From Terriglobales bacterium (GTDB lineage: Bacteria > Acidobacteriota > Terriglobia > Terriglobales > Acidobacteriaceae), in the NCBI GenBank assembly GCA_036770325.1, contig DAIPJJ010000002.1, positions 1-62,569 on the forward strand: a stretch of 62,569 nucleotides of DNA, read 5' to 3'. The translations under genes were made by a program, and so were the position numbers. The notes under the pieces were generated by a model. That model was not told the origin of the DNA. It was given only the letters and a program-made list of their open reading frames with translations, and did no database searches. Below are positions 2,658 through 17,479 of the stretch, piece by piece. How positions within the stretch are numbered: the first letter of the stretch is position 1; the number at the start of each line of letters is the position of its first letter.

Positions 2658-3356
2658 TTAGAGCGCAGCGGCAGTGCTGGTTCCGGCAGCGGCGAAAACG
2701 TCTTCTGCTTCTTGCTCTGCGAGCGGAATGAAGGCTTGGACGACGTCAAGATCAAACTGGGTTCCCGAACTCTCGAGCAGCCGCCGCACGGCTTCTGCAT
2801 GAGGCAGGCCTTTGCGGTAGCAGCGGTTTGAAACCATGGCATCATAGGCATCGATGACACACACGATGCGAGAGACCAGCGGAATATCGGATCCCTTCAG
2901 CTTTGCGGGATATCCACTGCCATCGACACTCTCGTGGTGATGCAGCGTGTAAAGGCTGGCATCTTCAAGCCCGGGCAGCAGGCGCAAAATCGACCAACTG
3001 TATTCTGAGTGCCGATTGATGACAGCGCGCTCGTCGGGCGTGAGGGGCCCTTGCTTTTTCAGTATCGCATCCGGCACGCCCACTTTGCCGATATCGTGCA
3101 GCAATGCCGCTACTTCCACCTGATACATGTGCTCTTCGGGAATATTCAGCTTGCGTGCGACACGCAGCGCCCATTCAGCGAGGCGCGTACTGTGCACGCC
3201 GGTGCTGATGTCTTTAAGGTCGAGAAGCTGATTGAACGCGCACACCAGGGAGTTGCGAAACGCAGACTGCTGCTCCTCGAGTTCTTTCACTCGAAAGAGC
3301 AGCAGTCCGGAATCAGCAAGTACAGTGTTAAGCGTTGCGCTCATTGTTGAGAACAA
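2658..3356 (-). CDS. HD-GYP domain protein (putative c-di-GMP phosphodiesterase)
   Basis: 232 aa with HDIGK and HHESVDGSGYP motifs. It starts 4 nt downstream of the subtilase stop. Confidence 0.85.
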   Translation of the reverse strand: MFSTMSATLNTVLADSGLLLFRVKELEEQQSAFRNSLVCAFNQLLDLKDISTGVHSTRLAEWALRVARKLNIPEEHMYQVEVAALLHDIGKVGVPDAILKKQGPLTPDERAVINRHSEYSWSILRLLPGLEDASLYTLHHHESVDGSGYPAKLKGSDIPLVSRIVCVIDAYDAMVSNRCYRKGLPHAEAVRRLLESSGTQFDLDVVQAFIPLAEQEAEDVFAAAGTSTAAAL

Positions 3357-3360
3357 TGGG

Positions 3361-4695
3361 TCACAGCAATCCGTGGCAGGATTTCACCGCGGAGTAGGAG
3401 TCCAACCGTCCCCAACCCAACTGCGGGTTGAAGATGGCGTCGGCGTGCGCCAGACCGGAGGCGACTTTCGTAGAAGAGCAGCCGCCGTTGTTCCCGAGCA
3501 TCAGAGCAGCCGTACCAGCGACGAAAGGTGTGCTGAATGACGTGCCCCAGCCCGCGGCGTAGGTTCCCGACGGATACAGCGTCATGATGCCTTCGCCAGG
3601 CGCCGCCATGAATACCGGCGGGTTGCCATAGTTGGTGAACGTGGACTGAATGTCCTGGTCTGAAGTGGAAGCGATGTTGATCACGCCAGGCAAAGCGCCG
3701 GGATAGACCTTCTCGTATTTCCCATCGTTACCGGCTGAAGCGACTGCGACCACGCCCTTGCTCTGGGCATAACTTACGGCCGAGGCAAGTTCGCTCGAGT
3801 AGCTCGGGAAATCCCAGCTCATGTTCAGGACCTTCGCGCCGTTTTGCGTTGCGTAGTAGATTGCGCGCAGAATGTCAGACTCGTAGCCTGAACCGTCGGC
3901 AGAAAATGCCTTCAATGGCATGATCTTCGCCTGCGGAGCTACCAGGTGAACGATGCCTGCGGTCATGGTGCCATGGCCGAAAGCGGTGTAATTTCCGCCA
4001 TCGAGCACCGCGACCGTGCGCTGGTCGAGAACTGCGATGGTCCGCTGGTTTACGTAGCCGGCCTGCGCATCGGACGGATCAGATGAAACATTGACGTCCG
4101 CATTCTCGGATCCGCCGCTCACGTTGCGCGTAAAGTCGTAGCCGTTGACCAGAACTCCGCGCAGCGCCGGATGGTTCGGATCGACGCCGGTGTCGATCAC
4201 CGCCACGGTCACTCCCGAACCAGTAACTCCCCACGAAGACTGCGTAAAGCTGCTGCTGACCAACTGGTTCCCGGGCTGCACCAGATATCCATGCCATACC
4301 GGGTTTCCGTAATAGGAGGTCAGAGTCTTGTCCGTCAGGTACGACGGCATCCCGCCCGCATTCGGCTGCTTCGCAGTAACCGTCTGGTCAACCTCAACAG
4401 ATAGAATGCCCAGCACATTGACGTTCAGCTTGAGCAGCGCGGTCAGCGGATTGAGAATTCTTGGAAATGTAACCACGAAGAGCTGACCTTGCGGATCACC
4501 TAAGCTGTTTCCCACCTTGCAGCCCAGTAACAGGCAGGTAATCCTAAGTCCAGACAAGCCGAGTGAGTCGCGAACGATCAGGCGGCTTTGTGCTTCCGCC
4601 TGCTGCGCGAGCATCGGCATCACCATGAGCACCATGCACATTAATGCGCGCCGGGCCCTGGATTTCAAATTTTCGATTGTGAAATTCGTCTTCAT
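3361..4695 (-). CDS. secreted S8 family serine peptidase (subtilase)
   Basis: 444 aa with an N-terminal signal-like segment. The catalytic triad contexts are AVIDTGVD, HGTMTAG and GTSFSTPFVAG. Confidence 0.9.
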   Translation of the reverse strand: MKTNFTIENLKSRARRALMCMVLMVMPMLAQQAEAQSRLIVRDSLGLSGLRITCLLLGCKVGNSLGDPQGQLFVVTFPRILNPLTALLKLNVNVLGILSVEVDQTVTAKQPNAGGMPSYLTDKTLTSYYGNPVWHGYLVQPGNQLVSSSFTQSSWGVTGSGVTVAVIDTGVDPNHPALRGVLVNGYDFTRNVSGGSENADVNVSSDPSDAQAGYVNQRTIAVLDQRTVAVLDGGNYTAFGHGTMTAGIVHLVAPQAKIMPLKAFSADGSGYESDILRAIYYATQNGAKVLNMSWDFPSYSSELASAVSYAQSKGVVAVASAGNDGKYEKVYPGALPGVINIASTSDQDIQSTFTNYGNPPVFMAAPGEGIMTLYPSGTYAAGWGTSFSTPFVAGTAALMLGNNGGCSSTKVASGLAHADAIFNPQLGWGRLDSYSAVKSCHGLL

Positions 4696-4779
4696 TTTCC
4701 CCTGCTCCCCAACTTCGGGGCGGTTCCGAAAGTCTAAGTTCTTGCCGTCCCCTTAGCTACTTACACCTGTAATACCGTG

Positions 4780-5424
4780 CTAGTTACTGTCGTTGGAGGC
4801 GCTATCGCCCCCTTCATGCTTTAGACTCGCAAGGGGGATGCGAATCAGTGCCCTTCCAACTACTTGAATCGAAAGCCTCAGGTTGTGCTGCGGCTCAAGC
4901 TCCAGATTGAACTCGCCGAAGGCGTTCGTCCTGGTTTCAGCCAGCGCCATGCCCTTTGCCGTCCATAAAATCACCGGAGAATTCTCCACCGCAGCCCGTG
5001 GCACCCGTCTATCCAACACCTGACCGGTAACAAAAATCGTTCTGGATAGCCCTGGCCCGTCGAACCGTAAATCGACGGCAAGCCCGTCGGCTTCAAACAC
5101 CATTTGCCGGGCCGCCGCAGCGGCCGAGCGAACTCCAGCAAGTGCGGGCCGCGCCAGTGTGTCAAACACCAGCTTTGCGAGCACCGGCTGCTTACTCTTC
5201 TCGAACGAGTGCGCGGCAAACTCCAGCTTCGCCATCCGGACGGCATTAATCGGGGGAGCGTAATTACTCTCGCGCAGCGCTATCGCGTGCACCCGTTGCC
5301 AAGTGTCGCGGACGATTGCGCAATGGTTGCATCCACTGGCAAGGTGTGACTCTATGTCCTTGCGCTCAGAGTTGCCGATTCCACGAACGAAATCAGCCCA
5401 GGCTTGCTCCGAAAAATGCTCCAT
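4780..5424 (-). CDS. TM-less protein with an N-terminal ZAS-like Cys/His motif (putative soluble anti-sigma factor) and a beta-sandwich-like C-terminus
   Basis: 214 aa. The N-terminus WADFVRG...HLASGCNHC resembles zf-HC2 anti-sigma factors (H-x4-C-x2-C). The C-terminal VTGQVLD...AFGEFNLEL resembles a carboxypeptidase-regulatory-like fold. There is no hydrophobic span. The function is an inference. Confidence 0.5.
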   Translation of the reverse strand: MEHFSEQAWADFVRGIGNSERKDIESHLASGCNHCAIVRDTWQRVHAIALRESNYAPPINAVRMAKLEFAAHSFEKSKQPVLAKLVFDTLARPALAGVRSAAAAARQMVFEADGLAVDLRFDGPGLSRTIFVTGQVLDRRVPRAAVENSPVILWTAKGMALAETRTNAFGEFNLELEPQHNLRLSIQVVGRALIRIPLASLKHEGGDSASNDSN

Positions 5425-5550
5425 TCTTAACCCTCACAGTTTTGTTGTGTACGGCGAATGCGGCTACCGTCCAACGCGAGTGTGTTCGCTTTCTATTCAT
5501 AAAGGGACGTCAAGGGGAGAAAAAATATAGGGGAGTAACAAAAAAACAGC

Positions 5551-8412
5551 TTACCCCTTTCCTATCAATAAGAAAGGAGCCCAGTAATAGGGATGCGGGC
5601 ACTTTTCGCGCAACTTCAGCATGGCGTTTCGCAGAGAGACCGCTTTTGAGCCGCCAGTCTGCAAGCCTGAGTAAAAGGCGATCATGAACTCTTTAGTGCT
5701 GGCGTCATGAACGTCCCAAAGACTCAAGATCATCGATTGCGCACCTGCCTGCAGTAAGCCGCGGACGAGCCCGATCTGCTCGTCTCCCGGCTTGACGACG
5801 TTCAGTCCGGTCGCGCACCCGCTCAGTACGACCAGTTCGGCCGGCAGCGTCAGGTGGTACAGGTCGTACAGGCTGAGGTACGAGTCGCCCAGGCGGATCG
5901 AGGAAAACATCGGATTGTCCTGGCGAAAGTAGCCGTGCGTGGCGATGTGGACGATCCGGCTCTTCGGCCCGTGCTCTTCAAGAGCGGCCTGGGTTGCGTT
6001 CTCGCCAATGAACAAGCGCGCGTTCGGCAGAATATTTTTTAGCGCAGCCACTTCATCGAGAATGGAGGGCGCCTGCGCGTCGGCAATCCCCATGATCAGG
6101 GATTCGCTCGACGAGTTCCCCGGCTGCGACTGGCACATGGCGTAAATGCTCGCGCTCGGGGCGTAAGAGATGGAGAACTTGTCGATCACGTAGTTCTCGC
6201 CGTCGTGCAGCGCGTGCATGGGAACGTAGTGCAGGAGGCCGTGCGGAACAAACACGAGGTGGCGCGCGTTGAGAGAGTTCTGCAAAGGCGCAAGCAGCTC
6301 CTGATACAGGTTCTTCAGGTGCGCCTGGGTCGATTCGAGCAGCGAGTCCTGGAACATGTTCACGTATTGCGGGTCGAGGCGGAATTTCGAGAGCTGAAAT
6401 TGCAGAAGCTGAAGCATCTTCTGCACTCGCGACTGGAGGGTCACCGGAAAGACTTGCAGGCCGTCTCGGCTAAGAACGCATGCCAGCACGCGGTCCTGAA
6501 CGCAGAAGTATTCGACGAGAATTGTTTCGTCCGGCAGGGCAGTGCGAATCTCTTCGATCGAAACACTGGCTGGCGCGCGCTGCAGGCCGGCTTGATTGAT
6601 TTCGAGGTCAGTCGCTTCCTGCAATGAGCGGAGCAGCTCGGTCTCGCGTGCCTTCGCCTGCTGTTCGAGATTTTCGATTCGAGCGGGCGAGTTCTCTTCT
6701 GGCCGCAGTTGCTCGCGCTCGATTAAGTTGTAGTACCAGTTCAACTCCTCCCGAAGGTTGCGGATGGAGCGCACCAGCTCGCTTTGTCCGGCATCAGCGT
6801 CAGAAGCCGTATGCACTGGCTGCGAGAGCAGTTCCATCAGGCTGCGCGATTTCGCCTGCTCCATGTAACCGAACGCTTCTTCGAGAGAATTCGGTCGGCG
6901 CAGACAGAGATCGACGAGCTGCTCGTAAACTTCGAGCTTGTTATTGAAGAATGCGATTTTCAGCTCCTCGCCGCGAAGGCTTCCGCGCAGGGTTTCGAGC
7001 GACGCCCGCGCCCGCGAGTAGGCTTGGTAGGCGGCATCCTGATTGCCCGTGCTGCGCTCGATTTCTGCGAGCAGGAACTCAGCGTCGTAAGTGAGAATGG
7101 GTGATTCGAGCGCTGCCGACTTCTCAAGCGCGGCCCGGCAACGCTCACGCGCCGCATTCCGGTCATTCATGCGGAACGCAATTCGCGCGAGTAGCAACTC
7201 GGCCAGAACGGCTTTCCTCTTCAGCGTGGATTTCGCGAAGAATTCGTGTGCGCTGGTGCAGAGCTGGCGGGCCTCGAACAAACGGCCTTCATTCAGCAGC
7301 ACGAGTGACTTGTACAAATCAATCAGCGAAGGCCAGACCAGGTTGTTATCGCGGACGAACATTTCCTTGGCTTCTGTGAAGAGCTTCAGTCCTTCAAAAG
7401 CCTGGCCGAGACGGCTGGCCGCGATTGCTGCGAACGCCAGTGCTTTCGCACCTTCGTATCCAAAACCGAGACGCTGGAAGCCGTCGTGTGCTTTGTGGGC
7501 GAGTTCCACAGCTTCCGCGCTCAGGTTCACTTCGATGTAGATTTCCGAGAGGTCCAGATCGCAGAGCGCAAGCTGGTAGGCATCGCGTGCATTTCGCGCA
7601 CTTGACGCTGCCTCGCGCAGCATCTTGATCGCCCGTCCATACTCGCCGCGTAAGAAATAAAGGTAAGCGATGTTGTAGTCGGCATACGCGACCAGGATCG
7701 GCATGCCTTTCTTTTCGCAGTATTCCCGAGCCTTCTGGTGGAATTCGAGCGCTCGCGGAAAGTCGTTCAGGAAAATGCAGCAGAGCGCAAGATTGCTGAG
7801 CACCGCGGCGAGACCTTCCGCGTCATCGCGCGTAACCAGATCGTCGTATGCCCGCTGGTAGTGCTGAAGCGCATCGGCGAACCTGTCCTGTCGCTGGTAG
7901 ATATTTCCGATGTTGATTTCAAGGCGCGCCAGCCGCCATTCATTGCCCTGCTCAGAAAAAATTTTCCGGGCGCGTTCGGCTGCCGCCAGGGCTTCGTCGT
8001 AGCGACCAAGCAATAAGTAGGGTTGGATCGATCCGCTTAGTGTCCTCGCCAGTTCGTTCTTTTCACCAACTTGATCAAAGAGCGCCGCCGCGCTGCGGTG
8101 CATTTCGATCGCGGCCGCGTGCTGGTCCATCGCGTACAGCGTGTTCGCCTTTGCGCGCTGGCTTCTCGCAAGCGCGACTTTGCTGCCGATTGCGTCGGCA
8201 ACGATCATCGCTATTTCGGCTATGCGCTGCGCATTCCCGATATTGACACTTATTTCCTGGCGGGCCTGGTCGGTCAGAGTGGAAACAACCGAGTCCCATT
8301 CGGCAAGGGGATGCTGTGCAATCAGCCCACGCAGGGCGGGCTCGTCACGCGCGGCAAGAAGCCTCGCGATCATCGCGTCGCACTCGGTCTGGGGGGCAGC
8401 TTTTGTGCTCAT
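5551..8412 (-). CDS. TPR-repeat CHAT-domain protein (caspase-like protease family)
   Basis: 953 aa. A long array of TPR-like helices is followed by a C-terminal CHAT domain with an intact His (IVHIATHGYF, codon 5935-5937) and Cys (VVLSGCATG, codon 5815-5817). Confidence 0.9.
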   Translation of the reverse strand: MSTKAAPQTECDAMIARLLAARDEPALRGLIAQHPLAEWDSVVSTLTDQARQEISVNIGNAQRIAEIAMIVADAIGSKVALARSQRAKANTLYAMDQHAAAIEMHRSAAALFDQVGEKNELARTLSGSIQPYLLLGRYDEALAAAERARKIFSEQGNEWRLARLEINIGNIYQRQDRFADALQHYQRAYDDLVTRDDAEGLAAVLSNLALCCIFLNDFPRALEFHQKAREYCEKKGMPILVAYADYNIAYLYFLRGEYGRAIKMLREAASSARNARDAYQLALCDLDLSEIYIEVNLSAEAVELAHKAHDGFQRLGFGYEGAKALAFAAIAASRLGQAFEGLKLFTEAKEMFVRDNNLVWPSLIDLYKSLVLLNEGRLFEARQLCTSAHEFFAKSTLKRKAVLAELLLARIAFRMNDRNAARERCRAALEKSAALESPILTYDAEFLLAEIERSTGNQDAAYQAYSRARASLETLRGSLRGEELKIAFFNNKLEVYEQLVDLCLRRPNSLEEAFGYMEQAKSRSLMELLSQPVHTASDADAGQSELVRSIRNLREELNWYYNLIEREQLRPEENSPARIENLEQQAKARETELLRSLQEATDLEINQAGLQRAPASVSIEEIRTALPDETILVEYFCVQDRVLACVLSRDGLQVFPVTLQSRVQKMLQLLQFQLSKFRLDPQYVNMFQDSLLESTQAHLKNLYQELLAPLQNSLNARHLVFVPHGLLHYVPMHALHDGENYVIDKFSISYAPSASIYAMCQSQPGNSSSESLIMGIADAQAPSILDEVAALKNILPNARLFIGENATQAALEEHGPKSRIVHIATHGYFRQDNPMFSSIRLGDSYLSLYDLYHLTLPAELVVLSGCATGLNVVKPGDEQIGLVRGLLQAGAQSMILSLWDVHDASTKEFMIAFYSGLQTGGSKAVSLRNAMLKLREKCPHPYYWAPFLLIGKG

Positions 8413-8413
8413 G

Positions 8414-9004
8414 TCAGAATCCCAGTTTTTCGAGCTGTTTTCTCAGCTTCTGAAGACAGCGCCCGCGAATGAATCCGATGGATCCGGTCGCGATACCCAG
8501 TTCCCGCGCAACGTCCTGATAGGGCCGGGGCGGGTTTTCGAAGAACAACATCTTCACCATCTGCTCGCAGCGGTCCGGCAATTGGGCGATTGAGTCCCGC
8601 ACCATCTGTTCTTTCTGGAGTTCCGCCAGCATGCGCTCGGGCAAGGGCTGGCCGGAGACGAGTGGCAAGTCCTCTCCTTTTTCGTCAGTCAGCGGCGAAG
8701 TTCGTTCTGCGCGCTTTCGATACTGCAGGCATTTGTGATAACTCGCCTGCATGATCCATTTGGGCAAAGCTTTCGGCTCGCGCAGCTTGGGAAGTCCGGT
8801 CAGCAGGTCGACGCAGACGGCTTGGAAAATATCGGCAGCATCGTCGTACATGCGAAGCTTGATGGGAACGGAGTAGATCAGGTTCTTGTACTTGTCGATC
8901 AGGGCCGACCAGGCCTCCTGATTGCCTTTCAGGCATTCAGAAACCAGGCGCTCGTCAGTCCATTGCGGCTGACGTTCCCGTTGCAGCTTGGCGGCAATCT
9001 TCAC
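8414..9004 (-). CDS. ECF-type RNA polymerase sigma-70 factor
   Basis: 196 aa with sigma-70 region 2 (AWSALIDKYKNLIYSV...DIFQ) and region 4 HTH (YQDVARELGIATGSIGFIRGRCLQKLR). The GTG start overlaps the SBP stop (GTGA). The stop lies 1 nt before the CHAT gene start. Confidence 0.88.
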   Translation of the reverse strand: MKIAAKLQRERQPQWTDERLVSECLKGNQEAWSALIDKYKNLIYSVPIKLRMYDDAADIFQAVCVDLLTGLPKLREPKALPKWIMQASYHKCLQYRKRAERTSPLTDEKGEDLPLVSGQPLPERMLAELQKEQMVRDSIAQLPDRCEQMVKMLFFENPPRPYQDVARELGIATGSIGFIRGRCLQKLRKQLEKLGF

Positions 9005-10779
9005 CGCAGGCCGGCCCGCTCCACGCCTGCGTTCTGGCGCAGATAAAGCTCGTCAGCATTCCAGAGTGTGTAATGGTCGAGCACGGCAGGATGAAAGTTG
9101 CCGATCTGAGCTTTCGCCCCAACCAGCACATCGGGCGTGGCCAGAAAGATGAAGGGCAGGTTCTGCGCGACTAACTCCTGTACACGGTCATACATCCGCT
9201 TGCGCTTTGCGTAATTGAGCGTGACCATCTGCTGCTGCATGAGTTGGTCGATTTCGCGCTCCCAATCGGTGGCAGGTTTCGATTCATTCAAGTGCCAGAT
9301 GTGGGTTGCGCCGTTTGAAAGCCATACGTTCATCTCAGGATTCGGATCGGGATCTCCGCCGCCGAGGCCCATAATTGCCGCGTCGTAATTGAAGCTCTGG
9401 AACACGCGGTCGAGCATGGCGCGGAAATCCAGCGGCACCACGCTTACCTGCACGCCTAACTTTGCGAGATCGTCTTGCACCAACGTCGCCATTTTCATGC
9501 GCTGCGTGTTCGACGAGCTGGTGACAATCGAGAACGAAACCTGCTTGCCGGAAGCATCAAGCAGTTGCCCGGTGCTGTTCCAGCTGAATCCTGCCGATTT
9601 CAATAGTTGGCGGGCGGTGTCGAGCGAGCGCTGCGGATGCGGAATTAAGTTATCCAGCCAGAGTTTGTTGCCCGGGCCGACATTGCCCCACAGCGGAGTC
9701 CCTCTCGCTCCGTAGACCAGCTTGACAATTGAGTTGCGATCAATCGCAAGTGAAACCGCCTGGCGGAATTTGAGATCGCGAAACCAGGCTTGTTTGCTGG
9801 CGACGTCGCCCAGCTTTTTCGCATCGATGTCGTTCAGATTAAAAACCAGGAAGTTATATTCGAGGCTTGGGCCGAGGTCGGCAAGCTGCCAGCCGTTGCG
9901 CGAGCTCTCTTTTGAAAGCAGCGCGTAGTTCTCCGCGCTCAGGCGGCTGACCATGTCGGTTTCGCCGGCTTCGAAGCGCATCACCTGCTGGTCTTCGCTG
10001 CCGACGAACAGGAACACAAGTTCATCGAGATACGGCAAGCGGTGGTTCTCGCGGTCGGCTTTCCAGTAGTAAGGATTGCGTTCGAGAACGATCCGCTGTC
10101 CGGCGACATACTGCTTCACGCGAAATGGGCCGAGTCCGGCAATTTCGGAAGGCTGCGTGTTCAATGACCAGGTCTGGTCAAAATGGCCTTCTTTGTACGG
10201 CTTTTCGAGCAGATGTTTCGGCAGCATCGCGAGCCCGTCGAACAAGCGCTCGGCGGCTGCGTACGGTCGAGGCAAAGTGAAGCGGACGGTGTATTGATCA
10301 AGCTTCGCAACTTCGAGCGGCTTGCCGTCAATCACAAGCAGATCGCGCTGCGGCGAACCGACATTCTCGTCGAGATAGAGTGCGAACGAAAAAACGACGT
10401 CATCGGCATCGAACGGCTGCCCGTCTGAAAAGCGAATGCCTTTGCGCAGATGTAACGTGAAGACGCGGCCATCGGGCGATGTCTTCCACGATTCGGCCAG
10501 TGCAGGCTCGGTCTTCTGCGATACGCGGTTGATGCTGATCAAATCTGCATTCAAGCGTCCGGTCACTTCGCGGGAGATTGCGTCAGTCGCGGTGACCGGA
10601 TTCAATGTCTTCGGCTCAGCACGCTGCCCAATGACGAGGCGTCCGCCGTAGCGGCCAACTTCATCATTTACGTGCTGAATGTCTTCTGAAGAACTAATGG
10701 GCGCCGGAGACGGGCCAGAGGCCACCGCTACGGCTGCAAGAAGGCACACGATGAGGGCAAGGCGAGCTATGGTTTTCAT
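9001..10779 (-). CDS. ABC transporter substrate-binding protein, family 5 (peptide/nickel type)
   Basis: About 590 aa with a signal peptide MKTIARLALIVCLLAAVAVA and DppA/OppA-like length and composition. It is the last gene of the ABC gene set. The ATG at 10779 is preferred over the GTG at 10794. Confidence 0.88.
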   Translation of the reverse strand: MKTIARLALIVCLLAAVAVASGPSPAPISSSEDIQHVNDEVGRYGGRLVIGQRAEPKTLNPVTATDAISREVTGRLNADLISINRVSQKTEPALAESWKTSPDGRVFTLHLRKGIRFSDGQPFDADDVVFSFALYLDENVGSPQRDLLVIDGKPLEVAKLDQYTVRFTLPRPYAAAERLFDGLAMLPKHLLEKPYKEGHFDQTWSLNTQPSEIAGLGPFRVKQYVAGQRIVLERNPYYWKADRENHRLPYLDELVFLFVGSEDQQVMRFEAGETDMVSRLSAENYALLSKESSRNGWQLADLGPSLEYNFLVFNLNDIDAKKLGDVASKQAWFRDLKFRQAVSLAIDRNSIVKLVYGARGTPLWGNVGPGNKLWLDNLIPHPQRSLDTARQLLKSAGFSWNSTGQLLDASGKQVSFSIVTSSSNTQRMKMATLVQDDLAKLGVQVSVVPLDFRAMLDRVFQSFNYDAAIMGLGGGDPDPNPEMNVWLSNGATHIWHLNESKPATDWEREIDQLMQQQMVTLNYAKRKRMYDRVQELVAQNLPFIFLATPDVLVGAKAQIGNFHPAVLDHYTLWNADELYLRQNAGVERAGLR

Positions 10780-10803
10780 AACGCCCTTCCCCACAGAACT
10801 TGG

Positions 10804-11847
10804 TCAGATTGAATGAGATTGTAACCAGTGATGGATGGCGTCGGCCAGAAGCCAGTAAGTAACTGAAGTAACTACCAGCGCGAACGCCGGTGCCAGCAGC
10901 CAGTAGTAAGAAACCAGCACGTTGTATTGCTGCAGGGTGCTCATCATGTTTCCCCAGCTTGCGACAGGCTCAGAGATGCCAAGCCCGAAGAAGGACAAAA
11001 CGGCCTCAGCCGCGACATATTGCGGAACAAGCAGCGCCGCTTGCGTGAGAAGGATTCCGAATGTTTCGGGCAGAACGTGACGCTTCAAGAGATAAAAGTT
11101 CGACGCACCGAACCCGCGTGCCGCCACAACGTAATTGCGATTGCGCGCGCTGAGCACGATGCCTCGCACAAGCCGCGCCGGCCGCGCCCAGCCGATTACG
11201 CCGATGACGCAGATGATCAGGAAGAACGTACTTATCGCGCTGAGATGCAACGGCAGGAATGCGCGGACTCCGATCAAAAAGTAAAACCAGGGCAGGGACA
11301 AAAACAGTTCTGCCGAACCCATCAGTGATTCGTCAACCAGCTTGCCGTAATAACCGGAGATGGTGCCGACGACGGCAGCGACGGATAGCGTGATCAGCGT
11401 CGCGAGTAGCCCGGCTGCCAGCGAAATCTGGCCACCATACAGTAAGCGCGAAAATTCGTCGCGGCCGTAGGAATCTGTGCCGAAGAGAAATATGTGGCCC
11501 GGAAAATTGGCGCCAAAAAGGTGCACTGAGCTTGGAATCAAGCCGAGTATCTTGTACCGATCGCCGCTTACGAAAAAGTGCAGCGGATATTCGTGCGCGT
11601 AGTCTTCGTGCAGGCCGTCGGAGTCAGGAGTGAGCTCATATACAAATGGCCGCAGGTGCAAACCGGATCGACCGACAAAATGCAGGCGGGTAGGCTGCGC
11701 GTACGCAAGCTCCCGATTCTGCGCAGCCGGATCGTACGGCGCGACGAATCCCGCCAGCAGGATGGCAAGATGCGCGGCGGCCAATACGATTATCAGCACA
11801 ACTGTCCTACGCCGCATCGGACTCTCCTGCGCGTATTCGCGGGTCAC
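10804..11847 (-). CDS. ABC transporter permease (DppC/OppC-like)
   Basis: 347-aa polytopic membrane protein of the BPD_transp_1 type. It overlaps the upstream permease gene. An alternative start is at 11817. Confidence 0.88.
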   Translation of the reverse strand: MTREYAQESPMRRRTVVLIIVLAAAHLAILLAGFVAPYDPAAQNRELAYAQPTRLHFVGRSGLHLRPFVYELTPDSDGLHEDYAHEYPLHFFVSGDRYKILGLIPSSVHLFGANFPGHIFLFGTDSYGRDEFSRLLYGGQISLAAGLLATLITLSVAAVVGTISGYYGKLVDESLMGSAELFLSLPWFYFLIGVRAFLPLHLSAISTFFLIICVIGVIGWARPARLVRGIVLSARNRNYVVAARGFGASNFYLLKRHVLPETFGILLTQAALLVPQYVAAEAVLSFFGLGISEPVASWGNMMSTLQQYNVLVSYYWLLAPAFALVVTSVTYWLLADAIHHWLQSHSI

Positions 11848-12784
11848 ACGTAAACAGCAGTAGGTCGGCGATCAAATTGCCCGCCAGCATAAACAACGCC
11901 GAAAGCATCACTGCGCCGATCACAACATAAAGATCACGCGCCATGGTGGCTTCAAGAACCAAAGATCCAAGGCCTGGCCAGCCGGTCACGACTTCGACCA
12001 GCAGCGAACCGCCGAGCAGGCCAGCGATTGAAAATCCGAAGAGCGAAATTGCCGGATTGGCGGCCAACGGCAGCACATGGCGAAACATCAGTCTCGCTTT
12101 GCTGATCCCGAGTCCGCGCGCAGCCTGAATGCATGGCGCGTCGAGTACTTCGAGTACGCTTGTGCGCACGTGACGCTCGACAATGGCGACACCACCGGGA
12201 ACCAGAATCGAAACCGGCAGCAGCATGTGACGAAGCACATCGGTGAATTTGGCCCAGCCCGAGAGATCGTCAAAATCCAACGACACCATTCCGCCGACAG
12301 GAACAATGCGCGAACGAACCGCCAACGCGAGTAAAGCAATAGAGACAACAATTTCCGGCAAAGAAATCAGTAGGGAGCTTCCTGTGCCAATGACTCGGTC
12401 AGTGACTCTGCCCCGTGAGCTCGCGCTCCAGACACCCAGCGGCAACCCAATGATCCATGTGAAGACGAGTGCGACCGATGTGAGCACCAGAGTGTTCTTT
12501 GCGCGTTCCCAAAGCAGGGGCGCTACGGGCGAGTTATAGCCCAGTGAGAATCCAAAGTCGCCGCGCGCCAGCGACGTTATCCAATGTCCATATCGCACAA
12601 CTAATGGCTGACTAAGTCCAAAGTGTTGCTGCAAATTGGCGATTGTTTCCGGCGAAATCTGCGGGTTCAATCGCATCTCGTCAAAAAAGCTTCCCGGAGC
12701 AAGTTCCGTGAACATGAAACAAAGTGCGGAAACTCCAATGAGGAGCAGCACCGCGCGCGCGAATCTTTGCGCGAGATGTTTCAT
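11807..12784 (-). CDS. ABC transporter permease (DppB/OppB-like)
   Basis: 325 aa with N-terminal MKHLAQRFARAVLLLIGVSALCF typical of DppB/OppB, and multiple TM segments. It has a 4-nt overlap with the upstream ATPase gene. Confidence 0.9.
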   Translation of the reverse strand: MKHLAQRFARAVLLLIGVSALCFMFTELAPGSFFDEMRLNPQISPETIANLQQHFGLSQPLVVRYGHWITSLARGDFGFSLGYNSPVAPLLWERAKNTLVLTSVALVFTWIIGLPLGVWSASSRGRVTDRVIGTGSSLLISLPEIVVSIALLALAVRSRIVPVGGMVSLDFDDLSGWAKFTDVLRHMLLPVSILVPGGVAIVERHVRTSVLEVLDAPCIQAARGLGISKARLMFRHVLPLAANPAISLFGFSIAGLLGGSLLVEVVTGWPGLGSLVLEATMARDLYVVIGAVMLSALFMLAGNLIADLLLFTCDPRIRAGESDAA

Positions 12785-13647
12785 GCTGAGGCTCCTTGCT
12801 CAAGTTTCCCTTTCAGCCGTTGGGCGCTCGCGATCAGCTCCCGCGTTTCCGCATGTTGCGGGTCTGAGATGATCTTGTGCGTCGGCCCTTGTTCGACAAT
12901 TCGCCCCGCCGAAATAACAGCAACCGACTCAGCTATCCGTGCAACCAATGCGAGGTCGTGCGAGATAAGAAGATAAGTCAGTGAGTACTTTGCCTGCAGC
13001 TTCCGCAGCATCTGCGCAATTTCGGCTTGCGTTGAAAGATCGAGGCCAGACAGGGCTTCGTCGAGAACCAGGATCTTCGGCTGCAGCGTCAACGCCCGCG
13101 CGATTGCGATTCGTTGTTTTTGCCCGCCGCTGAATTCTGTGATCCTCCGATCGAGCCAGTCAGGTGAAAGCGCCACTTCTTCCATCAACTCTGCGGCGCG
13201 GCTTCGGCGTTGCTCGCGGGTGACGCGATTCTGAATCAGCAGCGGTTCTTCGATGGTCTCGGCGGCGGTCATTCGCGGGTTCATCGCGGTGCTGGGATCC
13301 TGAAAAATCATCTGAATCTGGTGGCGAAAAGGCTGCAATTCACGCGCTGAAAGGCGCGCGATGTTGACGTCGTTCAGCCAGATGTCGCCTGAATCCGGCC
13401 TCTCTAATCTCGTGACACAACGAGCGATCGTCGATTTGCCGGAACCCGAAGTTCCGACCAGTGCCAACGTCGTACCCGCAGAAATTTCGAAGCTCACGCC
13501 GGCGGCGGCGTTTACCTCTTTACGTCGCCAGAACTGGCTTCGGACTGCGTAGCGCTTCGACAGCCCGCAAACGCCAAGCGCAATCGGCCCCGAAATTCGA
13601 GAATCAGTGAGCATATTGGGTAGAACTGGCAGCAGCACCGAGAGCAA
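12781..13647 (-). CDS. ABC transporter ATP-binding protein (OppF/DppF-like)
   Basis: Walker A GTSGSGKST, ABC signature FSGGQKQR and Walker B ILVLDEALS. An alternative start is at 13614. Confidence 0.9.
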   Translation of the reverse strand: MLSVLLPVLPNMLTDSRISGPIALGVCGLSKRYAVRSQFWRRKEVNAAAGVSFEISAGTTLALVGTSGSGKSTIARCVTRLERPDSGDIWLNDVNIARLSARELQPFRHQIQMIFQDPSTAMNPRMTAAETIEEPLLIQNRVTREQRRSRAAELMEEVALSPDWLDRRITEFSGGQKQRIAIARALTLQPKILVLDEALSGLDLSTQAEIAQMLRKLQAKYSLTYLLISHDLALVARIAESVAVISAGRIVEQGPTHKIISDPQHAETRELIASAQRLKGKLEQGASA

Positions 13648-14431
13648 ATTCTTTGGCTAATCCGACCAGAGTGCGTGTGTAAGGATGAGCAGGCTTTCGG
13701 AACAGATCGGTTGTCGCGCCGTGCTCAACTATTCGGCCCGCCTGCATCACTGCGGTATTGTCCGCAAATCCAGCAAGCGTGGCCGGGTCATGCGTGATCC
13801 AAATTAGAGCGGTCCCATCCCGTCGCACGATTGCAGACATCAAGGACTGAATTTGCACCTGTAGCGCCGGATCGAGTTTGCTCGTGGCCTCATCGGCAAT
13901 AACTAACGCCGGACTGCATGCGATTGCCTGCGCAATCACAACCCGCTGTCGCTGGCCGCCGCTGAGCTGGTGCGGATACGAGTCCGCGATCCGCTCGGGA
14001 TCATCGAGGCCGACTTCACCAAGCAATTCGCCCACGCGCACTTTGCGTTCCGCGCGTGTTAGCTCAAGGTGCGCACGCAATACTTCTGAAACCTGCGTTC
14101 CCGCGCGCATTATGGGATTCAACGACATCGCCGGGTCCTGCGGGATTATCGAAATCTGGCGGCCACGAATTTTTCGTAGCTGGCGGTCATCCAACTCCGT
14201 CAACTCGCAACCGCCGAGCAGAATTGAGCCGCTGACCTCAGCCGATGCAGGCAGCAATCGCACGATCGCGGCCGCCAAGGTGCTCTTCCCCGATCCTGAC
14301 TCACCGAGAATCCCGAGGACCTCTCCTTGCCCGATCCGCAGACTCACATTGTCAAGCGCAAGCACCGGCGTGCCCCGCTCGGGAACGTAGCGGACACACA
14401 AATGCCGGACCTCTGCGAGGGCGCAAGTCAT
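13604..14431 (-). CDS. ABC transporter ATP-binding protein (OppD/DppD-like)
   Basis: Walker A GESGSGKST, signature LSGGQRQR and Walker B ALVIADEATS. I chose the start at ATG 14431 (MTCALAEVRHLCVRY). The 143-aa upstream extension in the ORF track is low-complexity and overlaps the divergent methyltransferase gene. Confidence 0.88.
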   Translation of the reverse strand: MTCALAEVRHLCVRYVPERGTPVLALDNVSLRIGQGEVLGILGESGSGKSTLAAAIVRLLPASAEVSGSILLGGCELTELDDRQLRKIRGRQISIIPQDPAMSLNPIMRAGTQVSEVLRAHLELTRAERKVRVGELLGEVGLDDPERIADSYPHQLSGGQRQRVVIAQAIACSPALVIADEATSKLDPALQVQIQSLMSAIVRRDGTALIWITHDPATLAGFADNTAVMQAGRIVEHGATTDLFRKPAHPYTRTLVGLAKEFALGAAASSTQYAH

Positions 14432-14496
14432 GCCTTCATAGTGAGCTTTCGGGGGCGCGGTGTGGAGGTTACTTCGGTGTTCGTATGTCTCCCTGA

Positions 14497-15285
14497 ATGC
14501 ACTATTTCGCTCTGAACTTAGTGAGTTACCTCTTCGTGATCCCGTCTCGGTTAAATTTGGATGAAATGGCACATTACTTCCCAATCGCGTTGCCACAACG
14601 CGATTCACTGCTGAAAACGGCAGATGCCCGCCTGCATCCCTCTTTGCGCGATCCCAACTTCCTGGTGCTTCGTTCGCGCAAAATGATTCTTGAAAAATGG
14701 ATTGCCGAACTCGAAGGCACAGAGCTAAACGTGCTCGACGTAGGCGGGCGGTACCAACCGTATCGACCGCTGTTTGGAGAGCGTGCAAAGCGTTACTACG
14801 CGTGTGATATTTTGCAGACTGAGTTGGTTGATGTTTTGGGGAGTGGGGAGTCGCTGCCATTCGCTGACAATACCTTCGACGTTGTCATTGCCACGCAGGT
14901 GTTTGAATATTTTGCAAGACCACACAACGCGGCGGAGCAAATCTGCCGAGTGCTCAAACCGGGCGGGTCTCTGCTGATGAGCGTTGCCGCCTTGGCCCCG
15001 CGCTTCGTGGACGAGGAGTGCTGGAGGTTTACACCGCGAGGCATTCGCGCTACTCTCGTGACTTTTTCCGATGTGAAGATCGTCCCCGAGCTTTCGAGTG
15101 CCGGCGGAACACTGCGGACGTTGAATCTTGCTGTGCAAAGTTTTTCCAGATACAAGCCGCTGCAGGCGATCGCTAGAGTTACAACGTGTCCCATGCTGAA
15201 CGTCGCTGGGCTTGCGGTTGACGCACTCCGCCTGACAGACAACGATCAGTTCACATCGAACTACAGCGTTCTGGCGAGGAAGTGA
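14497..15285 (+). CDS. class I SAM-dependent methyltransferase
   Basis: Motif I VLDVGGR, a post-I acidic residue and LKPGGSLLMSV (Methyltransf_11-like). The true start may be ATG 14566 (MAHYFPI). Confidence 0.78.
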   Translation: MHYFALNLVSYLFVIPSRLNLDEMAHYFPIALPQRDSLLKTADARLHPSLRDPNFLVLRSRKMILEKWIAELEGTELNVLDVGGRYQPYRPLFGERAKRYYACDILQTELVDVLGSGESLPFADNTFDVVIATQVFEYFARPHNAAEQICRVLKPGGSLLMSVAALAPRFVDEECWRFTPRGIRATLVTFSDVKIVPELSSAGGTLRTLNLAVQSFSRYKPLQAIARVTTCPMLNVAGLAVDALRLTDNDQFTSNYSVLARK

Positions 15286-15360
15286 TTTCCGCAAAAAGTG
15301 GTGGATAAAACAAAAGGCTCCGGCATTCCGCCGAAGCCCTGTGCCCGAAAAACACCTCGG

Positions 15361-17214
15361 CTAAGGTAAGTAATAACGGAACGAGGTGAGAAACATATTC
15401 TCAACCCCGTGCGGCGCAGTGAAGTGTGAAGTCACACACGGGCCGGTAAGCGCAGCGGGTCCGCAAGCCTCCCATGAGTTGCGCATGAGATACGAGTATT
15501 GCGGCCCCCATTGCAGCGTCCCTTTCGGCCCTTTGTAGAAGCGATACCAGAAACCCGCGGTGCCTTCGATCACGTTGCGCGTGTTCGCCGTGCAGTTCGC
15601 AGGATTGCTGGGCAGGAATCCGCTGGATGAAACCGGTACCTGACCAGCGGTCGGAGTTTGACCGGGAACGATCTCCAGATAGCAGCCCGAATTGTTTGCC
15701 GTCGGAGAACCATACCCTACCGTGGCTCCTTTGCCGTTGAATTCGTAGTGCCTGCCCACGAATTCAGCACCGGCATTCAGATACAGGTCCAGCTTTGCGG
15801 TGTGGAACTCCAACATGCCGAGCCCCTGAGCGCTCTTTAAGAGCGCCAGAGTTCCATCCGGATTCACAGTAACGTCGGGAAGGCCTGCAGCGCCGTAGCG
15901 TCCCATGCCGTCGCCGCCAAGGAAGTGCCCAACGATGTCGAGATGCTTGTTGAGCACCGTGAATCGCGCATTCGCTCCAACGCCAGCAGCGGTGGTCGAA
16001 AAATTGCGCGCTCCTGCCGCTGTCGGGGTAGTCGCTGTTGCGCCCGGATAGATTCGATCGCGGAAGTCACGGATCACGCCGAAGAGTTCAAAGTGTCCGA
16101 AACCCGGCTCTGCGGCGGCTTTGAGAATAATGTCAGGTGAAGGATTGAACGTGTACGTCGCGGTCGGGTTATACAGACCTCCACTGGTTCCGGCAGAGCC
16201 AAGCAGGAAATTTTGTGCCTGCCCGCTCGCCGAGAAAATTCCCTGCGCATTTTCAACTGCGGCCCCCAGCCAGAACTTGTTTGCGAAGTTCTTCGTGACC
16301 CGGAACCCGTACTGCCGAGACCAACTGAAACCGACGTTATACGAAGGATCGATATTCATTGGAATGCCTTCGCTGCGGTTATCGAGGCCTTTCTTTGTTT
16401 CTGTTACAAGGCTCCACATTTGTCCGGCGGTGAAGGTGAATCCATCATCGAGCGCCGCCTGCCCCCAAACCTGACGTTGCCGCAGCGAGTAGCTGTTGCT
16501 TTGGTTGGCATTGGAGGTGATACCTGCCGAAAGGAAATCGGCTTCCACGTATCCGGCGAGTTTCGCAATGTTGGTCTTGCCTTCGGCCAGCATCGAGACT
16601 CGCGATTGACGTCCGGTGCCATAGAACTCGCTCATGTGGGTCGCATCGGCGCCGGGCATAGAGATCGAGTTGAACGGCGTGTTGATGTCGGATCCGAGCG
16701 AGTGCTGGCGCCAGACGGTTTCTGCAGCTAGAAAGCCTCCAGGCGTGATCGTGATGCCCTTGTAGTGGATCGCAGCCGGGCTCTCAAGCGCCGTGTGGAT
16801 GTTCTTTTGCGTTTCCTGCAGCGCGACCGCCGAGTTGGTCACGTTCGATTTGAGGTCCGCGACATCGCTCTTGAGCGAAGTCACGGTCTGTTGCTGCTCC
16901 GCCGTTTGCGAGGCAGCAGCGTCGGCCTTCGATTCCGCCTGCGAGGTGGCCGACTGGCTTTGGTTCACCTGCTGTTGTAATTGCTGCAGTTCACGGTCAC
17001 GGCTCTGCAGTTGATCGCTGAGCTGCTTGATCTGTTGTTGCTGGGCATCAATCGCCTGCTTCAGTTGGTCCAACTGGGCAGCAATCGCCGAATCGCTTTT
17101 CGAAGCTGCGGCCCTGTGTCGCGTGGTTTTAGTAGCCGCCGCCGTACTTTGCTGGGCTTGCGCCGCGAACGTCGAAAATACAAACGTCAGCGCCAAAGCC
17201 ATGAATCGCTTCAT
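15361..17214 (-). CDS. putative outer-membrane beta-barrel (porin-like) protein with an N-terminal Q-rich coiled coil
   Basis: Start at ATG 17214 with the SD aggaga. It has a signal peptide MKRFMALALTFVFSTFAAQA, about 130 aa of heptad-like Q/S/A-rich sequence, then about 450 aa of alternating aromatic/Gly-rich beta-strand-like sequence. The family assignment is tentative. Confidence 0.6.
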   Translation of the reverse strand: MKRFMALALTFVFSTFAAQAQQSTAAATKTTRHRAAASKSDSAIAAQLDQLKQAIDAQQQQIKQLSDQLQSRDRELQQLQQQVNQSQSATSQAESKADAAASQTAEQQQTVTSLKSDVADLKSNVTNSAVALQETQKNIHTALESPAAIHYKGITITPGGFLAAETVWRQHSLGSDINTPFNSISMPGADATHMSEFYGTGRQSRVSMLAEGKTNIAKLAGYVEADFLSAGITSNANQSNSYSLRQRQVWGQAALDDGFTFTAGQMWSLVTETKKGLDNRSEGIPMNIDPSYNVGFSWSRQYGFRVTKNFANKFWLGAAVENAQGIFSASGQAQNFLLGSAGTSGGLYNPTATYTFNPSPDIILKAAAEPGFGHFELFGVIRDFRDRIYPGATATTPTAAGARNFSTTAAGVGANARFTVLNKHLDIVGHFLGGDGMGRYGAAGLPDVTVNPDGTLALLKSAQGLGMLEFHTAKLDLYLNAGAEFVGRHYEFNGKGATVGYGSPTANNSGCYLEIVPGQTPTAGQVPVSSSGFLPSNPANCTANTRNVIEGTAGFWYRFYKGPKGTLQWGPQYSYLMRNSWEACGPAALTGPCVTSHFTAPHGVENMFLTSFRYYLP

Positions 17215-17479
17215 GTTCTCTTCTCCTGATGAACACAAGTTAAAACTGCTGAACAAAAAGAAATTTGGGGTTGTCTTTTCAAGATGCGAAAGCGATCGCG
17301 AGTAAGCTCCATGCTAGTTGCCGCGTGGTTAAGACCGAATGAACGCACTTTTAATGTTGCGTGAATTCTGAGCGGCTTTAACGCAAATTACAGGCAAGCG
17401 TTGGCGAATGGGATACTTTGAAAGCGGCCTCTTTCGGCTGAAGATCGCTTCAGAACGCTAACTCAGGATGCGAAATGAG

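Follow-up and report, generated by a model that had tools for sequence, protein, structure and literature searches.

The window analyzed here is a stretch of 62,569 nucleotides (nt) from the metagenome-assembled genome of a soil Terriglobales bacterium of the phylum Acidobacteriota (GenBank assembly GCA_036770325.1, contig DAIPJJ010000002.1, positions 1 to 62,569 of the forward strand), and its minus strand carries a block of ten genes that is most likely, on our analysis of its parts, a protease-released gene switch. In the order of transcription, the block encodes two ATPases and two permeases of an ATP-binding cassette (ABC) transporter, a solute-binding protein, a sigma factor of the extracytoplasmic function (ECF) type, a TPR-CHAT protein, a 214-amino acid protein that resembles zinc-binding anti-sigma (ZAS) factors, a subtilase of peptidase family S8, and an HD-GYP protein (Table 1). 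The six minus-strand open reading frames (ORFs) of the preliminary description of this region, together with their overlaps and spacers, were checked directly and are present, and the conserved unit proves to be about twice as long as the span then noted, since the two permease and two ATPase genes (10804-14419) lie upstream of the binding-protein gene on the same strand and overlap one another. The stop codon of the binding-protein gene overlaps the sigma start codon as GTGA, the sigma stop and the CHAT start are one nucleotide apart (TGA-C-ATG), a spacer of 126 nt lies between the CHAT gene and that of the 214-amino acid protein, and 4 nt separate the S8 stop codon from the putative TTG start of the HD-GYP gene. 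A hydrophobicity scan found no 19-residue stretch typical of a membrane helix in the sigma factor, the CHAT protein, the 214-amino acid protein, or the HD-GYP protein (Kyte-Doolittle maximum <1.7), in agreement with the earlier view that the 214-amino acid protein has no transmembrane segment.

Is this arrangement more than the accident of one genome? A profile scan with the sigma factor alignment, limited to one genome per species, identified 250 genomes with a sigma relative, and the loci of the best 80 of these 250 were fetched and searched with the ten proteins of the window. In nearly every sufficiently long locus of the 80 genomes, the genes occur on one strand in the same order: two ABC ATPases, two permeases, binding protein, sigma, TPR-CHAT, ZAS-like protein, S8, and HD-GYP. 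The outer genes differ among the four loci with listed flanks (L001, L003, L005, and L006), and because the order is kept while the flanks differ, the ten genes can be regarded as a conserved unit. The gene arrangement is far beyond a chance neighborhood, and the synteny whose absence elsewhere would have counted against the preliminary description is strongly conserved beyond this genome. The translational coupling of the sigma and CHAT genes that it had pointed out is also a property of the family, the junction being tight (-4 to +2 nt) in 76 of 84 loci; the binding-protein and sigma genes overlap by 4 nt in 59 of 78. A noncoding spacer of ~90-140 nt is always found ahead of the gene for the 214-amino acid protein, and one of ~80-140 nt precedes the S8 gene. 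All 80 genomes are metagenome-assembled, and 78 are labeled Acidobacteriota, mostly Terriglobales. The remaining two labels, Candidatus Aquilonibacter (Eremiobacterota; L023/L002) and Verrucomicrobiia (L025), both stem from one study of metagenome-assembled genomes, and these loci carry a typical Terriglobales-like block with a sigma factor 64-66% identical; mis-binning is probably a likelier explanation of the labels than transfer.

The members of the block are not conserved to the same degree. Among the census loci, the HD-GYP protein is the slowest-evolving member (62-93% identity) and the 214-amino acid protein the fastest. Anti-sigma factors usually evolve fast, and the rapid divergence of the 214-amino acid protein fits this behavior. 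In a distant acidobacterial genome (L008), the sigma factor (52% identical), TPR-CHAT protein (48%), 214-amino acid protein (31%), and S8 protease (43%) are encoded in the usual order, there is neither a transporter nor an HD-GYP gene, and a Crp-like helix-turn-helix gene stands in the place of the latter. Because only these four genes are retained there, they constitute the core, and the ABC transporter and HD-GYP genes are frequent, clade-specific additions to it; two loci in which the homolog of the 214-amino acid protein is just 32-33% identical retain all ten genes. Of the outputs once envisaged for the system, the exported protease is upheld, as it accompanies the core everywhere examined, whereas the links to cyclic di-GMP (c-di-GMP) turnover and to peptide uptake are plausible but do not belong to the core, being missing in L008.

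The sigma factor is a group IV (ECF) protein that has no regions other than sigma-2 and sigma-4, both of which are matched by their Pfam models. It scores 67 bits against TIGR02937 (cut-off 42.9) and has full-length sequence matches in the PDB to ECF sigma factors of the SigW, RpoE, and AlgU type, and it reaches the cut-off of no specific NCBIfam group. At E≤1e-10, 4989 relatives were found. The linker between sigma-2 and sigma-4 is long and variable. At least 97% of 86 sequences retain each of five cysteines (C24, C64, C92, C146, and C183), a degree of conservation that is unusual in an ECF sigma factor and may point to a sigma factor that itself binds metal or responds to redox state. In a plasmid collection, the best actinobacterial sigma relatives are just 27-32% identical. 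The best of these plasmid matches, from Streptomyces, was rejected as a counterpart of the block, for its context is unrelated (it sits in a polyketide cluster, not in a CHAT context); a Miltoncostaea match pairs a sigma factor with an S8 protease only, and a tblastn search of the plasmids with the 214-amino acid protein gave no match.

The protein encoded immediately after the sigma factor is, judged from its sequence, a TPR-CHAT caspase-like protease of clan CD, and not Csx29. A TPR superhelix (approximately residues 10-480) is followed by a helical linker and by the CHAT domain (~620-953). The catalytic dyad was rightly described as intact: 5935-5937 is CAC, for His826 in IVHIATHG, and 5815-5817 is TGC, for Cys866 in LSGCATG. 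Both residues are invariant in an alignment of 24 sequences, and H826, G827, and C866 are each at least 97% conserved in 71 orthologs, as are many residues around the dyad. CHAT chains in the PDB match by sequence with E values of 1e-8 to 1e-6, the Csx29 and other TPR-CHAT chains over the CHAT domain only, and the NCBIfam model of Csx29 (NF041237) likewise matches only the CHAT domain, with a score of 61.4 bits that falls below its cut-off of 300. An AlphaFold2 (AF2) model has a mean predicted local distance difference test (pLDDT) score of 76.8, with the TPR part at ~90. The three top Foldseek matches of this model are human separase, each aligned over 1,300 columns; Csx29 (8eey_B) is found at rank 19, and the other top matches are mostly TPR-only proteins. 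With neither a signal peptide nor a membrane helix, the protein is presumed to be cytoplasmic. In one locus (L029, 10540-15798), ~5.3 kb lie between the points at which the CHAT match and the 214-amino acid protein gene begin, compared with ~3.0 kb elsewhere, which implies that ~2.3 kb have been inserted between the two genes.

A search for the family of the 214-amino acid protein among 1.84 billion representatives (E≤0.001) returned 1648 clusters at 50% identity, nearly all of them full-length matches of 200-240 amino acids. In 72 species the four potential zinc ligands, H3-x23-H27-x4-C32-x2-C35, are invariant, and the H-x4-C-x2-C motif recognized earlier is confirmed in the window (HLASGCNHC). 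Also invariant are F87/D88, G134-Q135, and G170-E171-F172, and P93, G97, and R99 are each at least 97% conserved. The AF2 model (mean pLDDT 75) consists of four helices (residues 6-74) and a nine-strand sandwich (84-197), and a loop at 92-102 with pLDDT <50 coincides with the conserved P93-x3-G97-V-R99-S. The sandwich is weakly matched by CarboxypepD_reg in 13 of 28 family members. A Foldseek search with the model was of no use for identification, because it found generic Ig-like sandwiches only and the small helical domain was swamped. When the N-termini were compared by hhalign with four ZAS domain sequences entered by hand, they aligned at 77% probability (E 2e-5); the alignment has a gap of one residue and brings the four ligands into register. 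Pfam zf-HC2 is found in one family member, whose spacing is the canonical H-x3-C, and the Joint Genome Institute names one member RsiW. Sequence and model together give moderate grounds for likening the N-terminus to a ZAS anti-sigma domain, and the ZAS-likeness first noted from the motif has become that of a credible candidate for a soluble zinc-type anti-sigma factor, with invariant ligands, four predicted helices, and the hhalign match at 77%.

Variant loci carry this protein, or parts of it, in other contexts. In L080 (9965-11300), a related sigma gene (60% identity) is followed by a motif-bearing spacer and then by a 198-amino acid family member, and there is no CHAT, S8, transporter, or HD-GYP gene near the pair; the adjacency lends independent support, at the level of gene context, to an anti-sigma role of the family. 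In L092, a REC domain is fused to the loop and sandwich (13091-13897; hhalign 99.7%) directly after the block, and a second S8 gene (13948-15282) comes after the fusion, a pairing which suggests that the loop-plus-sandwich module can be moved between proteins and is linked in function to S8, CHAT, or both. A paralog in L081 consists of the loop and sandwich only, without the N-terminal zinc domain, and is followed by a sigma-54-type response regulator. The actinobacterium Nonomuraea gerenzanensis (L095, 5676-11030) has an S8 gene that overlaps the start of a sigma gene (30% identical), followed by a 156-amino acid ORF and a P450 gene; the ORF combines a short helical segment lacking zinc ligands with the loop and sandwich (hhalign 85%, E 6e-6), and a TPR-CHAT gene, apparently split into two frames, adjoins on the opposite strand. 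Because the loop and sandwich are joined to different N-termini in L092, L081, and Nonomuraea, they appear to form a shared docking and cleavage module with exchangeable cargo. The invariant Gly-x-Arg within a disordered loop has the form that would be expected of a CHAT recognition or cleavage site: separase cleaves after an arginine in a motif that is unstructured, and the cleavage sites of craspases are flexible loops (PMC11506125).

The spacer ahead of the gene for the 214-amino acid protein contains a bipartite motif whose weight matrix finds a single site in the 62.5-kb window. At a threshold of at least 14 bits, a site is present no more than 250 nt upstream of the gene (in most cases 58-141 nt) in 72 loci, and just 4 further matches occur in ~1.5 Mb of loci. 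L008, L081, and the CHAT-less L080 all retain the motif, and in L081 a second strong copy (37 bits, at ~2453 on the minus strand) stands ahead of the paralog. It is promoter-like because its internal spacing is fixed while its distance to the start codon varies, and we infer that it may be the target promoter of the sigma factor. A scan for sigma-70 promoters found fewer sites than expected from shuffled sequence and none at the conserved motifs, and an Rfam scan of the block found no RNA family. A terminator-like hairpin over the CHAT stop codon could mark the end of the upstream transcript. The T-rich stretch past this stop codon is conserved in the spacer alignment; the evidence for a terminator is weak, as the region has no more terminator-like sites in total than expected from shuffled sequence. 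The spacer before the S8 gene holds a second kind of element, the palindrome TTAC-N4-GTAA, which is strongly enriched there: 41 of 75 such spacers have it, and the loci as a whole (1.57 Mb) contain just 75 copies. In loci with both elements, a TAGAC sequence mostly lies 36 nt past the start of the palindrome (36-37 nt in nearly all), a geometry that would suit a class II activator site. The palindrome was rejected as a general shared operator, given that only 4 of 69 loci have a copy upstream of ATPase 1 and 8 have a related half-site.

Table 1. Genes and candidate regulatory elements of the block. Positions are those of the window; features are listed in the direction of transcription.
Feature	Position	Strand	Evidence or remark
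ABC ATPase 1	13604..14419	-	Pfam ABC_tran, E 7e-31, and oligo_HPY
ABC ATPase 2	12781..13647	-	Pfam ABC_tran, E 1e-34; position kept in ~70 loci
ABC permease 1	11807..12784	-	Pfam BPD_transp_1, E 2e-33
ABC permease 2	10804..11847	-	Pfam BPD_transp_1, E 2e-20; position conserved
Periplasmic family-5 (peptide/nickel type) solute-binding protein	9001..10794	-	Pfam SBP_bac_5, E 3e-90
ECF sigma factor, 196 amino acids	8414..9004	-	TIGR02937, E 1.5e-18
TPR-CHAT protein, 953 amino acids	5551..8412	-	Pfam CHAT (PF12770), E 5e-66, and TPR_12
Terminator-like hairpin over CHAT stop and T-run	5553..5580	-	12-pair stem, then AAGCTGTTTT
Bipartite promoter-like motif CCT(A/G)TATTTTT-N14-CCCTT(A/T)T	5499..5531	-	107 nt upstream of the gene for the 214-amino acid protein
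ZAS-like protein, 214 amino acids	4780..5424	-	No Pfam or NCBIfam match at E≤0.01
Palindrome TTACAGGTGTAA (TTAC-N4-GTAA), candidate operator	4761..4772	-	Spacer before the S8 gene
TAGAC element, candidate -10 region (TAGACT)	4732..4736	-	Downstream of the palindrome
Secreted subtilase S8, 444 amino acids	3361..4695	-	Pfam Peptidase_S8 (PF00082), E 2e-36
Stand-alone HD-GYP protein, 232 amino acids	2658..3356	-	Pfam HD_5 (PF13487), E 5e-39; TTG start uncertain

The S8 subtilase possesses a catalytic triad (D168, H241, and S386) and an oxyanion residue (N323) that are at least 97% conserved in 69 orthologs, and it falls under the cut-off of all specific NCBIfam subtilase models. Its N-terminus is signal peptide-like and is probably followed by a propeptide; the basic-hydrophobic-AxA pattern is present in all 25 N-termini that were printed, of the 69 aligned. 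A 24-nt tandem repeat in the gene (4001-4049) encodes QRTIAVLD-QRTVAVLD between the catalytic Asp and His, and this QRT(I/V)AVLD unit occurs in two copies in 53 of 69 orthologs, in three copies in six, and in four in L008. The HD-GYP assignment stands, as both motifs are present, and H87, D88, G148, Y149, and P150 are invariant in 68 orthologs; the protein is predicted to be a c-di-GMP phosphodiesterase. In some genomes, a large MASE1-PAS-GGDEF-EAL protein, a second link to c-di-GMP, adjoins the HD-GYP end of the block in either orientation (L001, 17109-19850; L003, 16399-19479). The window has no such gene, and DUF892 (2013-2522) and fabF (644-1879) genes are found there instead.

At the other end of the block, the ORF of ATPase 1 as delimited mechanically reaches 14860. 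A start near 14419 is inferred from the orthologs, which have 268-272 amino acids in L001, L003, L005, and L006, and tblastn matches to the long ORF begin at approximately residue 148 in most loci. The permease 1 gene overlaps that of the preceding ATPase by 4 nt in 66 of 73 loci. The solute-binding protein has a hydrophobic N-terminal signal (Kyte-Doolittle maximum over 19 residues 2.34, at residue 9) and stays under the cut-off of all NCBIfam equivalog models. Between the start of ATPase 1 (~14419) and a divergent methyltransferase gene (14497-15285, plus strand) lies a conserved ACACCGAAGTAACCTCCACA-like element (14454-14463, minus strand). It is found 44-56 nt upstream of ATPase 1 in the window and in seven relatives (L001, L003, L005, L006, and L011-L013), and in four more distant loci TTAC-N4-GTAA takes its place; it could serve the transporter-sigma-CHAT operon as promoter or operator. 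Further upstream, a 631-amino acid ORF (15361-17256, minus strand) has no Pfam match and is ended by a strong hairpin resembling an intrinsic terminator (15314-15340; 12 pairs, 7 of them G-C, and a T-run), just upstream of the methyltransferase gene and the block region.

How might the four core proteins act together? In the mechanism that we favor, the N-terminal zinc-finger helical domain of the 214-amino acid protein would bind and silence the sigma factor, and its C-terminal sandwich, with the disordered P-x3-G-V-R-S loop, would dock on the CHAT protease. A signal reaching the TPR region of the protease, which is cotranslated with the sigma factor, would then trigger it to cut the invariant loop, whereupon the freed N-terminal fragment would be degraded and the sigma factor released. 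The released sigma factor would read the bipartite motif, CCT(A/G)TATTTTT-N14-CCCTTAT, before the inhibitor gene, and transcription from there would both provide negative feedback and read through into the S8 and HD-GYP genes. This logic would mirror that of Csx29, Csx30, and CASP-sigma, with unrelated substrate proteins and without CRISPR (clustered regularly interspaced short palindromic repeats). That the block is a protease-released switch of some kind is the most likely reading; the full chain of sequestration, triggering, and loop cleavage is more tentative, and we put it at somewhat short of an even chance.

A number of observations weigh against this mechanism. The likeness of the N-terminus to ZAS domains was obtained by hhalign with reference sequences entered by hand; nearly all members of the family have H-x4-C spacing instead of the canonical H-x3-C; zf-HC2 has no match in 27 of 28 members, the sole match having an E value of 0.018; and a HMMER profile search of PDB sequences, with the whole 214-amino acid protein and then with the N-terminus alone, gave no meaningful match. 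The zinc domain is wholly missing in the actinobacterial relatives, and the literature reads the actinobacterial ECF54 group as having no anti-sigma factor. The L080 pair, which has no adjacent CHAT gene, implies that release need not depend on CHAT. The confidence of the AF2 model is low over the CHAT active-site region (825-902), which may be due to a shallow alignment or may represent a resting state. The bipartite motif is unlike the common GGAAC/CGTC pattern of ECF promoters, and the weight-matrix scan did not find it upstream of the sigma-containing transporter operon, so that classical autoregulation of the sigma factor through this motif is not supported. Finally, the mechanism leaves unexplained why a secreted S8 protease should be an obligate partner of the core.

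The L080 pair suits another possibility, that the 214-amino acid protein is a zinc- or redox-responsive anti-sigma factor of the RsrA/ChrR type, from which oxidation or loss of zinc would free the sigma factor with no need of cleavage; CHAT, S8, and HD-GYP would then be coexpressed effectors, or CHAT would have other substrates. The four invariant ligands are of the right kind, the five nearly invariant cysteines of the sigma factor would be at home in a redox circuit, and redox roles of ZAS domains are established and are discussed in PMC11506125. Such an anti-sigma factor would, however, leave unexplained the translational coupling of CHAT to the sigma gene in nearly every locus and the invariant loop and sandwich that move with other N-termini. 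Nor does it account for actinobacterial versions that keep CHAT and the loop module yet drop the zinc domain, and we regard it as unlikely, although it is the strongest of the alternatives.

The same actinobacterial context, in which TPR-CHAT, S8, and sigma are found together in Nonomuraea with a loop-plus-sandwich protein that lacks the zinc domain, would be expected if CHAT or S8 degraded or processed the sigma factor itself and the 214-amino acid protein were a protease adaptor or inhibitor. This is the proposal published for ECF54, a group described as having no anti-sigma factor (PMC8999054); in its favor, translational coupling would supply sigma and CHAT in a fixed ratio, and the linker between sigma-2 and sigma-4 is long and variable. 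Against direct action, the acidobacterial 214-amino acid protein has an anti-sigma-like N-terminal domain with conserved ligands, no conserved exposed arginine motif was noted in the sigma linker, and S8, because it carries a predicted signal peptide, cannot meet a cytoplasmic sigma factor. We consider direct action to be distinctly unlikely.

A more elaborate version of the favored mechanism would also give the transporter and the secreted protease a part to play. In it, the S8 protease would generate or mature extracellular peptides, the cotranscribed Opp-like ABC importer would carry a peptide into the cytoplasm, and the peptide would bind the TPR superhelix and switch on CHAT activity. CHAT would cut the G-V-R-S loop of the zinc-finger anti-sigma factor and so free the ECF sigma factor, which would drive the inhibitor, S8, and HD-GYP genes, closing the feedback loop and lowering c-di-GMP; the loop and sandwich would serve as a general CHAT-addressing tag for other cargo, such as the REC domain of L092. 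The block could then be viewed as a Gram-negative counterpart of the RRNPP systems of Firmicutes in which a protease replaces the DNA-binding receptor, a highly doubtful idea. Least probable of all, indeed very improbable, is a role in anti-phage defense or conflict, with the block a system of the TPR-CHAT kind whose sigma factor switches on defense genes, as in the craspase or DdvA/DdvS systems: all characterized CHAT/ECF pairings are linked to defense, and there are weak matches to Csx29 in NCBIfam (61 bits, CHAT domain) and to a subtilase in PADLOC, but the Csx29 score is far under its cut-off of 300, PADLOC-DB has no match for the sigma factor or the 214-amino acid protein and only weak generic domain matches for CHAT, S8, and HD, the window has no CRISPR array (cas genes were screened for only in the block and its near flanks), sequence identities track relatedness, no mobile-element genes were seen in the flanks, and the block is joined to a transporter operon.

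The protease-release mechanism has precedents, and the preliminary description, which knew of no characterized case of CHAT-controlled ECF signaling, was outdated on this point. In the craspase system of type III-E CRISPR loci, Csx30 uses its N-terminal domain to bind and inhibit the ECF-like CASP-sigma, and the inhibition is relieved when the TPR-CHAT protease Csx29 cuts a loop of Csx30 that lies in the C-terminal domain (PMC10028731). As in that system, the acidobacterial block has a cytoplasmic TPR-CHAT protein and a soluble two-domain protein, encoded next to an ECF-type sigma factor; the N-terminus of the two-domain protein is anti-sigma-like, its C-terminal domain is preceded by an invariant disordered loop, and Csx29 is among the full-length Foldseek matches. 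Unlike the craspase locus, the block has no Cas7-11 or Csx31 and the window contains no CRISPR array, target RNA cannot be the activating signal, and the genes are embedded in a transporter operon and vertically inherited. The 214-amino acid protein has no sequence match in the PDB set, which should include the Csx30 chain of 8EEY. In Myxococcus xanthus, DdvA is a membrane anti-sigma factor with its zinc domain inside the cell and a TPR-CHAT region of its own outside, and CHAT is proposed to start the release of the sigma factor DdvS by cutting a flexible linker (PMC11506125). There, too, a zinc-binding anti-sigma domain and TPR-CHAT serve one ECF sigma factor. However, DdvA is a single polypeptide of zinc domain, membrane helix, and periplasmic TPR-CHAT that requires RseP, controls an island of cyclic oligonucleotide-based antiphage signaling system (CBASS) and CRISPR genes, and is confined to Myxococcota, whereas the block encodes two separate, predicted soluble cytoplasmic proteins with no membrane helix. 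CalpL, CalpT, and CalpS of type III CRISPR loci also combine a soluble protease, a cleaved soluble anti-sigma factor, and a sigma factor that is ECF-like (10.1101/2023.06.23.546230), although CalpL is a Lon-type protease that is activated by cyclic oligoadenylate through SAVED, with no TPR and no CHAT, in a system linked to defense. With the classical ZAS proteins RsrA, ChrR, RslA, and RsiW, the 214-amino acid protein shares a helical N-terminus and a first ligand ~23 residues before H-x-C-x2-C; in its C-terminal domain and conserved loop it differs from the known ZAS proteins.

By gene context, the block is related to the actinobacterial ECF54 sigma factors. Control of ECF54 by a protease has been proposed in a review (PMC8999054, citing Huang et al. 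2015 and Casas-Pastor et al. 2021) on the strength of CHAT, subtilase, and carboxypeptidase-domain proteins conserved beside the sigma gene, and the classification of Casas-Pastor et al. (2021) lists the group without a clear regulator. In nearly all acidobacterial loci, counting from the sigma gene, CHAT is at +1, the CarboxypepD_reg-like protein at +2, and S8 at +3, and the Nonomuraea locus fits the published description of the ECF54 context. The acidobacterial +2 protein differs from its Nonomuraea homolog in the addition of a four-helix N-terminus with zinc ligands, the gene order is sigma-CHAT-partner-S8 as opposed to S8-sigma-partner with a divergent CHAT gene in Nonomuraea, the ABC transporter and HD-GYP genes are additions, and the 4Fe-4S protein reported near ECF54 (Casas-Pastor et al.) is not seen. 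The concept of protease-controlled release has been anticipated by the craspase work and by the notes on ECF54 context; new here are the candidate anti-sigma factor, the candidate cleavage loop, the promoter-like motif, and the coupling to a transporter and an HD-GYP protein.

The block is a chromosomal, vertically inherited, putative signaling module of Acidobacteriota, related by context to actinobacterial ECF54. The candidate anti-sigma factor, the candidate cleavage loop with its invariant Gly-x-Arg, the candidate promoter, and the catalytic residues provide handles on the system. The loop-plus-sandwich domain may be a portable module that addresses proteins to CHAT, and should the TPR sensor be supplied by the transporter and the secreted protease, this would be the first peptide-sensing CHAT protease. 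Release of an ECF sigma factor by a soluble caspase-like or Lon-like protease has so far been demonstrated only in type III CRISPR defense loci; if the mechanism proposed here is true, a dominant phylum of soil bacteria would use the same protease-release logic in a regulatory circuit of the ordinary kind, inherited vertically.

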